From a virus (taxonomy: Duplodnaviria > Heunggongvirae > Uroviricota > Caudoviricetes), in IMG/VR virus record IMGVR_UViG_2563366976_000008, positions 1-11,953 of that record: a stretch of DNA of 11,953 nucleotides. One strand, 5' to 3'. The position numbers are program-made. Below are positions 6,001-11,953 of the stretch, one piece after another (the stretch's first letter is position 1; every line of letters starts with the position of its first letter).

Positions 6001-9000
6001 CCCTGCGGTCAGTGCTGCTTCTTCGTTATAAGTAAAAATCACGTTGCTCATGCGGCGTTTTCCTTAATTTGATGAACATTATTGATGCCGTAGTAATCAC
6101 AAACAGTGGCATCGACGAAAGAGAGATCGTTATCAATCTCATTGGAATCAAACATTCCCATTGGGGATTTGACAGTGTCTGCACCGTTGTTTTTCGTGGT
6201 GAAAAAGAACTGGTCATCGCGGGTAAGAGTGCGAAGAACTATAGTAAACATGCCTTCGACAGTGATTTTCTCGTCCAGCATTTTGCCGATAGTTTTCATT
6301 TTCACGCGCCCCATAGGGGTTTCTTCGGTATGTGCAAGAAAATAGACTCTCAGGTCATCAGGTGCATCCTGTGCAGCCTTAATCACCTCCCATGCGTGGC
6401 GGCCTATCTCAGTAAATTTATCAAACGATTTTTCTTCTGAGCGGCGCATAAACTCATTGCTCATCACATACTGGAAGTCATCAACAATAACGATTCTTTT
6501 CCCGTATTCGTGAGCACGCTTAATTACGGCAACTATTACGTCCCATTTGTCAGTGGTAACTACGGTTCCTTTTTTTGCTCTGGCATCCCATGCCAGCCAG
6601 TCTTTTGATTTAAATGGTAGCGGCTTGCCTATTGGTTTTATAAGTATTGCTTCCTCTGGATTGATATTTCTCATGCTGGTTGATTTTCCGGTGCCAGATT
6701 CACCGAGTATTAATGTCGCAGTTCCCATAATTTGCCTCAGAATGGTAATTCGGATGGGGAGGAAAGAAACTCACGCTCATTCATGCGCTCTCTTTGCGCC
6801 TGCCATAAACAAAGTTGTTTCTTTGATTTATCTCCCGCTTTACGCCAGTAACGAGCCTCAGCAATGTGATATTCTCTTTTTAATCGACTTAACTCTGGAG
6901 TTTTCGCCAGTTCTACCGGAATCATTTTGACCTCCATTTTCTGTAGGCTTCTACGGCTTCACGAAACATCTTTTCATCGCCAATAAAAGTGGCGATAGTG
7001 AATTTAGTCTGGATAGCCATAAGTGTTTTATCCATTTTTGGGAACTCCTGGCTGATTAAGTATGTCGATAAGGCGTTTCCATCCATCACGTAATTTACGT
7101 GTGATTCGTTCAAGTAAAGATTCGGAAGGGCAGCCAGCAACAGGCCACCCTGCAATGGCATATTGCATGGTGTGCTCCTTATTTATACATAACGAAAACG
7201 CCTCGAGTGAAGCGTTATTGGTATGCATATAAAAAAGCCCTCACACTGGAGGGCAAAGAAGATTTCCAATAATCAGAACAAGTCGGCTCCTGTTTAGTTA
7301 CGAGCGACATTGCTCCGTGTATTCACTCGTTGGAATGAATACACAGTGCTTATTCGCAGCCTACATAATCATTCCGGTTATTATTACCATTTCAATATCA
7401 CTATCTTTCATAATGATTGGAGTTGAGTTATCAACTTTACTTTTACTCCATTTTCCTGCATCAGTTTTTACCGCTCCACAATAAGAAAGCCAATCATCAT
7501 CACAATGTTCTGGATCACTAATTCTGACAAGAACACGTGATAGTGCTTTTTCGATACTTTCATCACAATTAGCATTTGTGTAATTGCCGTGAGACAATTT
7601 CAAATCGTTAACTTCATCTTCATTGGCATCAAAAATATAGATTTCAGTCGACTCTGGAACATTTTCATAAACCATTAAAACTTTCATTTTTACCCCATAT
7701 TGTTTATGCCAAAAATAAAGGTCGGCTATGCGGCCTGAAATTACTTAATCAATGATGCTGCATATTCGATAAGGTAAAGTTTTGGGGCCAGCCAAATTTT
7801 TAACCAAGTCATATTGGTTACTGCACCAATAATAAAAATCCCCCACAGAGTCAAAACTCCAACCAATGGCACGATAAGAAGATTAATATCACCTTTGCTA
7901 TCCCAAACCATTGTCGGCCTGTATTTGGGATTTCCTTTCTCCCATGAATATCCTTCATCACCGATTTTACCTGTCTCAACTCTTTGGCACTGCTTCTTCA
8001 TAAACCAGAAAACCAGTGGGATTGTTAGAATGGCTATTAATGTTTTAATCAGACTGTCAACCATATTCCATAGCAGCAACTGATGAACAACATCAGGAAT
8101 CTGTGCCTGGCTAAATGAAACAGCCGCGTCTATTCCATTGCTGGCTTTTTGCAGTAGTTCTACGAGAATCTTGTTTGCTTGTTCTTCCATATATCACCTT
8201 AAATAGTGGCTTGCGGTAGTAAAGATTGTGCCTGTCTTTTAACCACATCAGGCTCGGTGGTTCTCGTGTACCCCTACAGCGAGAAATCGGATAAACTCTA
8301 TTCACCCCCTACAGAGAGAATGATGGAGATTCACCGATGAGTAACTGGTGGCAGGAACTATTACGTTTCTTCCTGCGTGGTCTTACGCTACAACAGTTAA
8401 TTCATATGCTTATTATTTTAATTGCCTTGATAATAATCACCCCAGCATCAATTAAAGAGTGGGTAGATATAAGGAACCCAGAAATACTTCCAGATCACTG
8501 GATGTATTACGCGATGCTTTTGTGTATCAGTTATGTTCTGAACAGGGTGATGGAGTTTATATTTCTGGCATCTTCAGACAGATATAAAAAATATCTCAGT
8601 AAGAGAGATGAGGCTAAAGTAATTGTGGAGACTGAGCGCCTGTTCAATTCTCTGAGTATTCAGGAAAAAGAGGTTTTAGCATTTGCTGTTATGGCAAATA
8701 ACAAAATCGTACTTAAGCACGGCGATCCGGTCGCTTTATCTCTTATGAGAAAAGGCCTTCTCCATCGCTCAGGTGTGACTTACAGCGCGTCAGGTAAAGA
8801 GAAATTTGTTATACCTGACGTCTGGTTCCATGAGTGTTATATGCGCTTTGCTGGTAAAGCTGATGAGCTAATTTAGTTCCTCGACGGCGGGGGATCGTCA
8901 TCTCGCCGTCAGTTGTTTTGATTTCCGGTAGCCTGCCGCGTAAAGAGCTACGTTTGGAAGACAAGTTGAACCTTCATATTTTCTGGTCAACGTTGTCAGA

Positions 9001-11953
9001 GTTATCACTTCTGCTCTCATTGCTGGTTTGCGCTTGCATTGCAAGACCACTCGTGAGGGGGTTGGCCTGTGTAGCTTGTCGGAGCTGATCGCCTCCTGAC
9101 TTTGCAGATTTGCACGACGAGCTCTACGGCGAGAAGCTGCGGTTCCTTTAAATTCTGTTTTTCTGGACATAGATTCCTCCCGAATAAACTTTGGCGATGC
9201 AATCTCGAAGCCCCTCCTGAGACGGTTGCTTCGGCATTGCATCCCACAGCTTATGTGGTTGGGTGATCTGGCTTTTCAGCCACGTAGTCGAGTGTTCGAC
9301 GTTGTTTAAAGAGCCTGCCAATCTTTTCCGTTTGGCTACCAGCGTCCTGCTGATGGAAATAATAGTCACATATTGTGATTTAATGGTCAATCACAAAATG
9401 TGTAAAATAAGGGTGTGACACGTTATGTGTATGATTTTTTTGTGTAAATAGTTTTCCCCGCGATGGGTTTGCTTACTTAAGGCGGGGGAAACAGCAGGAT
9501 GGTGTGCTGAAAAGTTCGAAAAACGAGCGAAGTAGGTGGTGACGAGATGGCGGGATATGGGAGTTGTATTAAGAATTATAGTAATTTAATCAGAGGCTTG
9601 GGCTGGCTGGCAGGTGCTGTCCTGATAGTTATGTGCAGGCAACAAAAAACCCGGGGCGGTTCAGGTTGTCTCATTTTTTAGTTTGCTTTGGATTCGGTTT
9701 GTCTCTTCTTCCAATTATAAACACGCTAGTTAAAGCAACTAACTCAGCACCAAGAAGCCCGGTAGCCCAGCCATAAGCCTCGTGCTGAATCATCTTGTAA
9801 GCAATTCCTGCGAAAACAAAGACAGAAGTCATCGCAAAGATCTGTCCGAGTCGATCTCGCCAAATTGCTCCCCTCTGTCCTGCTTTGTAATACTCGTGTC
9901 TGTGTTTTTGCTCAGCCTTAGCCATGTCCATTATTTCGCGAGCGAATCCTGGAGATATTCTTTCGTACTTAGCTAATTCGTCAGCGTCTGGGAGTGGCCC
10001 TGATCTAGTGTGAGTCACCTGCATCATGATGCCAGCTAGATCTGGCCTGTCCATGAGGCGCTCAAGAACTTGAGGGTTCTTTGCGACCTCATTTATAAGC
10101 AGTTCGGTTTTACCGTCTTGAACTCGCCCTAACGGAGTTGGTTGGTTAACAAGATTTCTCGGTGCGGCGGTTTGAAGCTTTCTTTGGGATTTTTTTCTGC
10201 TCATTATCAGTTACAGCGTCTCTAACGTAACTACCTACCTTAACCCAATCTGAGTTGATAAGGTCGATGTCTGTAGCATTTGAATGATACTCGCTGTAGC
10301 TACCTGCTGGGCAAAGGTCAAGGATAGAGCCCATAGCGCTGAAAAAGTGCTTTGCAGATTTTTTCATGTGGGGTGTCCTATATGTTGTTTACTCTAATTT
10401 GAGTAATTGAAGTTTACGCAAAACCTAGCTTTCAGCAAGCAATACAGCACAAAAAATCATGTAAATTTGCGTCTATTTTTATCTACCGGAAAAATGCTCA
10501 ACAACTTTAGAGAAAAAATAGCAATACCAAATCAAACCAATTGCTGCTTCGCCTCTACCCAAACGTCTCTTCAGGCCACTGAGCCTTAACTACCTTGCCT
10601 ATGATGCGGCATGTGTGATCGCAGTCCAGGGTTCTGTATGCCGGATTCAATGGAACCAAGTAACTAACCCCTGCATCCTTCTCATACTTCTTGAACGTTG
10701 CCTCTGAATCACCATTTGCAGAAGCCACGCAGAAATCCCCAGACTCTACCGGCTCGGCCGGATCAACGAGTATCAGCATACCCTCAGGAAAACTCGGCCT
10801 TACGCCCTGTGGCGCAGTCATAGAATGGCCTTTCACCTCAAGCCAGAAAGCTTTTTCGCTGGCTTTTGTGGTCGTTGGGACCCATGCCTTTGCATCGCTT
10901 GCTGTGTAGCTTCCAACCTCCGAAAACGGCCCGGCCTGCACTGAAGAAAATAACGGGTACTCATATTGGCGAAATACAGCGTCTGAATCCTCGCCAAACA
11001 TTATTTTTGCCGGAGATACGCCGAGTGCCGCCCCAAGAACCAGCGCGTCATCCGCGCTAACCTTTCTTGTTCCTAACTCGTAGTTCCCCAGGCGTGAAGG
11101 CGCAGCCCAGCCGCAAAGCTTGGCCAATTGAGCCTGGCTAAGTCCTTTAGCTTCTCTAAGGGACTTGATCCTTTCCCCGATAATTTCATGCATCGTTTTC
11201 ATCCTTTAAATGTAACACGCAACGTGATTGAACTCTGTACACGAATTGAGGTTGACTGTTAATCACAAATTGTGTGTAATGGGTGTGTGATTAATACTAG
11301 GGAGACCGCAATGAACAAAATTGCCCAGCAGCGAAAAAAAATCGGAGTTTCGCAAGCTGTACTGGCTTCGGCAATTGGTTGGGGGCAATCCCGCATCGCC
11401 AACTATGAGCTGAATATCCGTACTCCTAGACTTAACGATTGCCGAAAGATCGTAGAAGGCCTCAGGAAGTTAGGGTGCCAATGTTCTTTGGATGATGTTT
11501 TCCCTCCATCCAGTAACAAAGCCGCCTAAGCAGTACCCGCTCTTTGTAACAACGGACATTCGTCCTACGTCGCTGAAAAGCGAGTCCCAAGATATCTGAC
11601 CAACTAAGGCCATATGCGTTTCCACGCATACCTTTCAACTAACTATTCACTATTGGAAATCTTAAGAAATGGAAAGAACAAGTTACAGCAAACTATCACA
11701 GCGTGACGTTGATCGCGCTGAAACAGATTTACTTATCAACCTGTCAACGCTTACTCAGCGCGGTCTGGCAAAGATGATTTGAACCGCCCCGGGAATCCTG
11801 GAGACTAAACTTCCTGAGAAAGAGGTAAACAGGATGACTAAAAATACTCGTTTTTCCCCTGAAGTCCGTCAACGGGCAGTCCGTATGGTTCTGGAAAGTC
11901 AGGGCGAATATGACTCACAATGGGCGACAATTTGTTCCATTGCTCCAAAGATT

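Follow-up and report, generated by a model that had tools for sequence, protein, structure and literature searches.

Analysis of an 11,953-nt stretch of caudovirus DNA (positions 1 to 11,953 of IMG/VR record IMGVR_UViG_2563366976_000008; this whole stretch is hereafter called the window) revealed an N/nut early antitermination module of a lambdoid prophage of the Shiga toxin (Stx) phage type, comprising a gene for the N antiterminator and two N-utilization sites, nutL and nutR (Table 1). In both sites the boxB hairpin carries a GAAA tetraloop and the N protein carries an arginine-rich motif (ARM) with a short tail, and these two features would constitute a cognate pair separate from the one found in H-19B and its relatives. 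The probability of this overall explanation, an N/nut module of the proposed mechanism, is put at roughly 0.85. The N/nut element as such is already known, annotated, ordinary and widespread. The residual unusual point is the natural coupling of a boxB with a true GNRA tetraloop to a shortened motif, for which no description was found in the searchable literature, a body that excludes most subscription journals.

The N protein and the nut sites

The N gene encodes 90 amino acids within an open reading frame (ORF) spanning 8898-9242 of the minus strand. As the original prediction of an N-like antiterminator had anticipated, the protein matched the Pfam family N_peptide (PF25694, "Transcriptional antitermination N peptide") over residues 1-90, with 111.3 bits against a cut-off of 27.9 (E 3.4e-32), and also PHROG 271 (E 4e-25). 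The annotated N proteins of VT2-Sakai, Stx1 converting phage, Stx2 phage 1717, PA phages and others have the same sequence (100% identity). The string SRRRARRA, noticed earlier near the N-terminus, corresponds to residues 13-20 and lies within an ARM of approximately residues 9-26 (GTAASRRRARRANLQSQE), in which R14 is nearly invariant in one homologue alignment (A1) and R14-R16 are invariant in another (A3). These alignments revealed a modular protein: the N-terminus M(S/T)R(R/K)TxFxG...RRR is conserved and the tail of the motif is variable, a stretch ISSxxLHRPTxSR is conserved, a central insert of ~30 residues is optional, and the C-terminus CLPxVALYAAGYRKSKQLTAR is near-invariant and is also found with P22-type and phi21-type motifs. 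The predicted resemblance of the C-terminus to that of other lambdoid N proteins was thereby borne out, the segment CLPNVALYAAGYRKSKQLTAR being nearly invariant across N proteins with P22-, phi21- and H-19B-type ARMs. A sequence search of the PDB, using a copy that includes the lambda N entry 6GOV, returned zero chains at E<=10, and therefore no structural template for N.

The ATG at 9170 is most likely the true start of N, because GGGAGG stands 5 nt upstream of it, the Pfam model spans residues 1-90, and the in-frame ATG at 9242 is buried by a leader hairpin (9184-9254, minus strand). Distant N homologues have a GGAG-type ribosome-binding site at the equivalent place, in most of them CAGGAGG. 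The 114-aa ORF that begins at the ATG at 9242 was rejected as the true N, as this codon lies inside a very stable hairpin. GenBank AP005153 (locus L002, 3152-3496) annotates the 114-aa version of N, starting at the buried ATG. The annotation of the gene is inconsistent, and several RefSeq E. coli genomes (H113, H116-H120) label the region "hypothetical protein".

Upstream of N, nutL occupies 9269-9314 of the minus strand and is matched by a co-oriented nutR after cro (11539-11583, plus strand). The boxA-like sequence that had been proposed upstream of N is present as GGCTCTTTAAACAACG at 9300-9315, and may be compared with the rrn boxA, UGCUCUUUA (PMC2724277). Neighbouring elements of nutL overlap, since the G at 9300 is both the last base of boxA and the first of the spacer hairpin, and the first C of the linker (9287) also closes the stem of that hairpin; in nutR, UACG stands between spacer hairpin and boxB. 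A composite pattern, boxA...CAACG...CTACG...CTGAAAAG, matched the window twice, at nutL and nutR, with 0 matches expected in 200 shuffles; the short nut motifs taken singly were not above chance. Sequences identical to both sites are annotated in GenBank AP000422 (VT2-Sakai) as "putative N-utilization leftward/rightward", and nut sites are conserved among N relatives down to 43% identity. The co-oriented copy after cro, the GenBank features and this conservation sustain the identity of nutL, and the boxA/boxB pair is retained in homologous phages, the opposite of the lack of conservation that had been named as possible counter-evidence. Rfam holds no family for nut sites, and its matches in the window all lie elsewhere.

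The closest annotated counterparts are VT2-Sakai (Sp5; AP000422) and Stx1 converting phage AP005153, in which N and the boxA and boxB of both nut sites are identical to those of the window. The spacer-hairpin loop is CUC in VT2-Sakai as compared to ACAC in the window, and the immunity region (cI/cro/operators) and the genes between cI and pL differ in both phages. No functional study of an N of the VT2-Sakai type was found in the searchable literature.

Two hairpins follow boxA, and the second of them is boxB. Among 80 IMG/VR loci with N 98-100% identical, boxA and the second hairpin are invariant, and the loop of the first hairpin is free to vary (ACAC, CUC, ACUC, AUC, GCAC). In distant relatives the first hairpin stays paired with other stems (GGUGA/UCACC, GAUUC/GAAUC, GGAC/GUCC). 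As its loop varies freely and its pairing is kept with different stems, the first hairpin was assigned as a structural spacer element. Being conserved and lying between boxA and the second hairpin, it might itself be the boxB bound by N, leaving another role to the GAAA hairpin, but this is extremely improbable: phages with identical N differ in its loop, its stem sequence differs between nutL and nutR within one phage, the motif is tracked by the loop of the second hairpin only, and the established boxB of H-19B is the second hairpin (PMC3526286). The spacer hairpin was rejected as boxB.

The nutL boxB hairpin TGGCTGAAAAGCCA forms a stem of 5 bp capped by a GAAA tetraloop (ΔG -7.1 kcal/mol, z -3.5). 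The original prediction was right about the presence of a hairpin, which it placed one base off (9268-9281 instead of 9269-9282), and was mistaken about the loop, which it read as TGAAAA. The stem is fully paired in every scored site, with two-sided changes at three of the five pairs (U-A/A-U, G-C/C-G, G-C/A-U). This set was partly gathered with a pattern demanding pairing; collections anchored only on boxA, on the N gene or on the CUACG linker gave the same picture of the stem. Columns were read from a gap-free alignment and explicit pattern tables; a whole-nut MAFFT alignment misregistered the pentaloop rows and the 4-/5-bp spacer stems. The closing pair is U-A almost everywhere, but L147/L148, and L105 at both nut sites, have C-G instead; the closing pair is therefore real and the loop has four bases. 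A UGAAAA hexaloop on a 4-bp stem is very unlikely. Most sequences are invariant for the U-A next to the loop and so give no covariation there, but C-G replaces it in L147/L148 together with the same motif class and in L105 at both sites, the energy model gives 5 bp and a tetraloop, and the homologous closing U-A pair is required in lambda boxB; the hexaloop was rejected. With the short motif only GAAA or GCAA loops occur, which is the GNRA consensus, and in its sequence the window loop fits this consensus.

Covariation of the arginine-rich motif with the boxB loop

The survey covered about 230 loci from the window, GenBank, IMG/VR, NCBI, ENA and Logan assemblies. A first scan of IMG/VR recovered near-identical N genes only, and diversity came from searches seeded with distant homologues; a scan of genome contigs yielded 12 loci, mostly C-terminal fragments. 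Two tails of the motif were found in the lineage, a short one, RRRxRRAxLQ(S/N), as in the window N, and a long one, RRRERLK(A/S)..., which is 7 residues longer and occurs in H-19B, HK97 and 933W. All short-tail loci with a readable upstream region had a tetraloop in the nutL boxB (148 of 148; 127 GAAA and 21 GCAA), and 75 of the 81 corresponding long-tail loci had GACAA. The other six were unscored, a longer leader placing nutL outside the 260 nt scanned. The nutR loops were no exception, at 107 short-class and 19 long-class sites, and zero cross-class combinations were found at nutL or nutR. This strict covariation agrees with the earlier suggestion that a distinct boxB loop would imply a distinct N-boxB recognition specificity.

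The loop follows the motif tail, irrespective of the remainder of N and of the immunity region. Motif class and N body occur in all four combinations, in L102, L105, L106 and H-19B; L102 and L105, as well as L106 and H-19B, have near-identical N bodies with swapped motif tails, and in both pairs nutL and nutR switch together. L102 and L105 carry different cro genes, and their nutR regions are ~97% identical over the ~130 nt from boxA on, with three of the six differences inside boxB (CU-GAAA-AG to CC-GACAA-GG).

The layout of boxA, CAACG, spacer hairpin, CUACG and boxB is the same in the window and in H-19B, HK97 and 933W. The nutL of H-19B reads CAACG, GAUUC-gaaua-GAAUC, UACG, GCGCU-GACAA-AGCGC, and its nutR equals the window nutR in spacer hairpin, linker and boxB stem, differing by one extra C in the boxB loop (GACAA versus GAAA), at several positions of boxA and in a few flanking bases. 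The spacer hairpin typical of H-19B is thus present in both window sites, whereas the P22-type GACAA pentaloop, which H-19B has in both nut sites, is replaced by GAAA in both. H-19B is reportedly less dependent on host factors, not needing NusB or S10. Its N shares 40% identity with the window N, with MxRxTxFxG...RRR, ISSxxLHRPTxSR and the C-terminus common to both; the ARM of H-19B continues as RLKAKALANGVLAREE, 7 residues longer, and the protein has an extra central insert of ~30 residues. The H-19B nutR forms two hairpins, and in footprints N, NusA and NusG protect spacer and boxB (PMC3526286).

The likeness to lambda lies in the ARM, in the 5-bp, U-A-closed hairpin with a GNRA fold, which for the window is predicted from the loop sequence, and in a boxA preceding boxB; the lambda spacer lacks a hairpin, unlike that of the window sites. 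The short motif SRRRARRANLQSQ aligns in register with the lambda-type ERRRAARAEKQAE of L181. The lambda-type motifs of L150 and L181 (ERRRAARAEKQAEW) have a tryptophan where the window N has E26, and lambda N has a tryptophan at this same position. The boxB loops of lambda are pentaloops, GAAGA and GAAAA, with a GNRA fold and one base extruded (PMC2724277, PMC12027372), and lambda N requires a GNRA-fold loop and a closing U-A pair (PMC12027372). In P22 the C-terminal segment of gp24 (N) is conserved with the window N, the motif is GNAKTRRHERRRKLAIERD, and the boxB stem ends, like that of the window, in CU...AG around a GNRA-like loop, the C of GACAA being looped out and contacting the peptide (PMC12550061). 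The ARM of phi21 binds a hairpin likewise, with a CUAACC hexaloop (PMC12550061), and a phi21-type motif was found on the same C-terminal module (P0058). Compared to the boxB of lambda and P22, the window has the 5-bp stem with U-A next to the loop but not the five-nucleotide loop with a flipped base, the loop being of four nucleotides, G(A/C)AA, in 148 of the 148 loci of its class. On sequence, its nearest relative is the GACAA of H-19B and P22 minus the C or, equally, the GAAAA of lambda nutR minus one A. GACAA, GAAGA and GAAAA are all GNRA-like, and thus the window boxB is such a loop reduced to a bare tetraloop.

Several points weigh against the overall explanation, the separate specificity included. 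Many of the loci are near-identical prophages, and the counts are not independent events; N and nutL are ~100 nt apart, and the association could partly reflect linkage; P22 N is said to tolerate many GNRA-like loops; cross-recognition between the short- and long-motif classes may occur; the searchable literature offers no binding or reporter data for the window N with its boxB; and an IS629 lies in the cII-like gene, so that the prophage may be defective, with N and both nut sites intact. The first three of these points, that is, easy co-inheritance over a short distance, the preponderance of close relatives and the tolerance described for P22, also favour a reading in which the module is the same, both motifs would take any GNRA-like boxB, and tetraloop and pentaloop would form no specificity barrier, their association with the motif being one of co-inheritance. 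It is further favoured by the recognition of the GNRA fold, and not of the extruded base, by lambda N (PMC12027372). Such a reading is possible and clearly the less probable one, since nutR lies ~2.3 kb away, beyond the highly mosaic cI/cro region, and always fits the motif class, which weakens the objection from linkage. L102 and L105 differ in cro and have almost the same nutR flanks, the changes clustering in boxB; the window and H-19B differ in the boxB of nutR by the loop C only; and wherever motif class and N body are recombined, the loop goes with the motif. Both reciprocal mosaic pairs, and the way in which the distant nutR behaves, nevertheless favour co-selection over simple linkage. 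Covariation gives good support to a putative separate class of N-boxB specificity, and the chances are about even that the short motif with its tetraloop would form a fourth natural class, beside the pentaloops of lambda (4-out) and of P22 and H-19B (3-out) and the hexaloop of phi21.

Another motif class, KDNARTRRH(R/M)(R/C)RMVEAIECR, was observed in three IMG/VR loci (L185, L194 and L197). These keep the layout of boxA, CAACG, hairpin and CUACG at ~100-150 nt upstream of N, and the second hairpin there reads GGUGC-CGAGAAC-GCACC, which may be a GAGAA pentaloop next to a C-C pair, as in phi21.

Leader, promoter and prophage context

Between the nutL boxB and the ribosome-binding site, the N leader is predicted to fold into a long, stable hairpin (Table 1). 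Long hairpins were also obtained for the N leaders of four distant relatives (z -4.0 to -4.8, in single-sequence folds); a joint fold of the leaders aligned poorly, the inner parts being unrelated, and the single-sequence folds were taken instead. The base of the hairpin is conserved among these relatives (AAAGU..UUUGGGRUG / CAYCRCCAAAGUU). The leader of lambda N contains an RNase III site, and the hairpin of the window resembles it; it is a candidate element for processing or translation control.

The assignment of pL to the promoter-like sequence upstream of nutL is inferred. The homologous place in VT2-Sakai is annotated as "putative major leftward promoter", and a sequence CA(T/A)CAGCAGGAC(G/A)C lies upstream of nutL in most distant loci. 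On the rightward side, the site of VT2-Sakai homologous to the tR1-like hairpin is annotated as "putative rho dependent terminator for pR transcript", and the hairpin of the window is presumed to be the first target of antitermination.

Table 1. Coordinates of the N/nut module and of neighbouring features in the window.
Feature	Position	Strand	Basis or remark
N gene, 90 aa	8898..9170	-	Pfam N_peptide, PHROG 271, identity to VT2-Sakai N, homologue alignment
Ribosome-binding site GGGAGG, 5 nt before ATG 9170	9176..9181	-	Read directly from the sequence
N-leader hairpin, long and stable, from boxB to ribosome-binding site	9184..9254	-	ΔG -42.1 kcal/mol, z -4.84
nutL boxB UGGCU-GAAA-AGCCA; 5-bp stem, U-A closed, GNRA tetraloop	9269..9282	-	Fold, covariation
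Linker CUACG, spacer hairpin to boxB	9283..9287	-	Varies once only (CCACG in the nutR of one relative)
nutL spacer hairpin GUCGA-acac-UCGAC, H-19B "reducer" type	9287..9300	-	Stem pairing kept across lineages
nutL boxA GCUCUUUAAACAACG, similar to rrn boxA	9300..9314	-	Sequence, composite pattern search
pL-like promoter TTGACC, 17 nt, GACTAT, then conserved CATCAGCAGGACGC at transcript start	9342..9390	-	Inferred
DUF2335 predicted membrane protein	9671..10204	-	rex-like slot between cI and pL
cI-type repressor, HTH + Peptidase_S24	10555..11202	-	Context
cro-like HTH gene, followed by nutR	11311..11529	+	Context
nutR boxA GCUCUUUGUAACAACG, starting 10 nt past the cro stop codon	11539..11554	+	Sequence, composite pattern
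nutR spacer hairpin GGAC-auuc-GUCC	11554..11565	+	Fold; identical to H-19B nutR hairpin
nutR boxB UCGCU-GAAA-AGCGA	11570..11583	+	G-C to C-G compensatory change relative to nutL
tR1-like hairpin AUGCGU-uucc-ACGCAU, downstream of nutR	11614..11629	+	Annotated VT2-Sakai homologue

The leftward early operon begins with N, which adjoins the cI/cro immunity region. The order is cro (+), cI (-), the DUF2335 gene (-), pL-like promoter, nutL and N (-), followed by kil, the cIII thermoregulator and a gene for a single-stranded DNA-binding protein (SSB), and VT2-Sakai keeps the same early-region order. Between cI and pL, VT2-Sakai has hypothetical genes unrelated to the DUF2335 gene of the window. Directly downstream of N, a homologue of the superinfection-exclusion protein SieB (8337-8876, +) runs opposite to the pL operon, and a plus-strand hairpin, GC-rich and with a T-run (8883-8910), lies exactly between the convergent stops of the two genes. 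Further along the operon, the Rfam family Lambda_thermo (the cIII thermoregulator) matched 7123-7181 of the minus strand with 88.5 bits as compared to a gathering score of 50, beside a kil homologue (6922-7161, -). A full-length Rfam match to sRNA-Xcc1 (2019-2103, -), just below threshold with 49.6 bits against a gathering score of 53 (E 1.5e-6), was found immediately upstream of a homologue of the anti-repressor Ant (1356-2015, -).

At the right end of the window, the end of an insertion sequence (IS; TGAACCGCCCCGGGAATCCTGGAG..., 11780-11953, +), which we take to be of the IS629 type, interrupts a cII-like ORF (11669-11779, +) at 11780, leaving 37 codons of it; a further ORF follows the IS end. 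Normal establishment of lysogeny is probably beyond this prophage. This break, together with an immunity region matched over at most 63% of its length in any complete E. coli genome of the collection, would suit a module that is an inactive relic of a defective element, which is nevertheless unlikely, as the N ORF and the ribosome-binding site in front of it are intact, as are both nut sites, the pL-like promoter and the cI and cro genes, and N is identical to the N of inducible Stx phages. A 14-mer of the IS629 terminus, TGAACCGCCCCGGG, recurs at 9650-9663 of the minus strand (0 expected by chance), where it overlaps a terminator-like hairpin just after the DUF2335 gene; the terminator of VT2-Sakai at this place is unrelated in sequence. 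A rearrangement may have left a solo IS end here, or the match may be coincidental.

Proposed mechanism and significance

In the lambda N elongation complex, the motif lies on boxB, the KH domains of NusA touch boxB, NusB-NusE sit on boxA, and the C-terminus of N reaches into RNA polymerase (PMC8632103). By homology, and by analogy with this complex, the leftward transcript from pL and the rightward one from pR would each carry a nut site with a linear boxA, a spacer hairpin and boxB, the short spacer hairpin shortening the distance from boxA to boxB. The arginine-rich helix of N would bind the boxB tetraloop on the nascent RNA, and the remainder of N, acting with NusA and further Nus factors, would modify RNA polymerase, which could then pass the tR1-like hairpin and the pL-operon terminators. 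As compared to H-19B, HK97 and 933W, the loop of the window is one nucleotide short, lacking the one that solved structures of pentaloop complexes show flipped out, and the motif is correspondingly shorter by 7 residues and lambda-like, without the tryptophan; together, the two would make up a separate cognate pair.

Of 5,426 complete E. coli genomes, 759 contain the N-nutL module along at least 80% of its length, at up to five places per matching genome, and the pentaloop class of the H-19B/933W type is likewise common. The searchable literature describes no tetraloop boxB and no test of the VT2-Sakai N, which is weak evidence that the pairing is unpublished. In lambdoid phages, antitermination by N lets early transcription proceed towards the late-gene activator Q. 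Q controls the expression of Shiga toxin.

If the proposed pairing holds, a canonical GNRA tetraloop without an extruded nucleotide would serve as the assembly site of the antitermination complex, and an indel of one nucleotide in the loop with one of 7 residues in the motif would be enough to switch specificity. The members of each natural swap pair, L102/L105 and L106/H-19B, are distinguished essentially by a single nucleotide of the loop and by 7 residues of the motif, and would be useful for asking what the extruded boxB nucleotide does in RNA-protein recognition. If the two classes are heterospecific, they would decide which co-resident prophages cross-activate after induction, and indels in loop and motif would set which co-resident Stx and other lambdoid prophages trans-activate each other.

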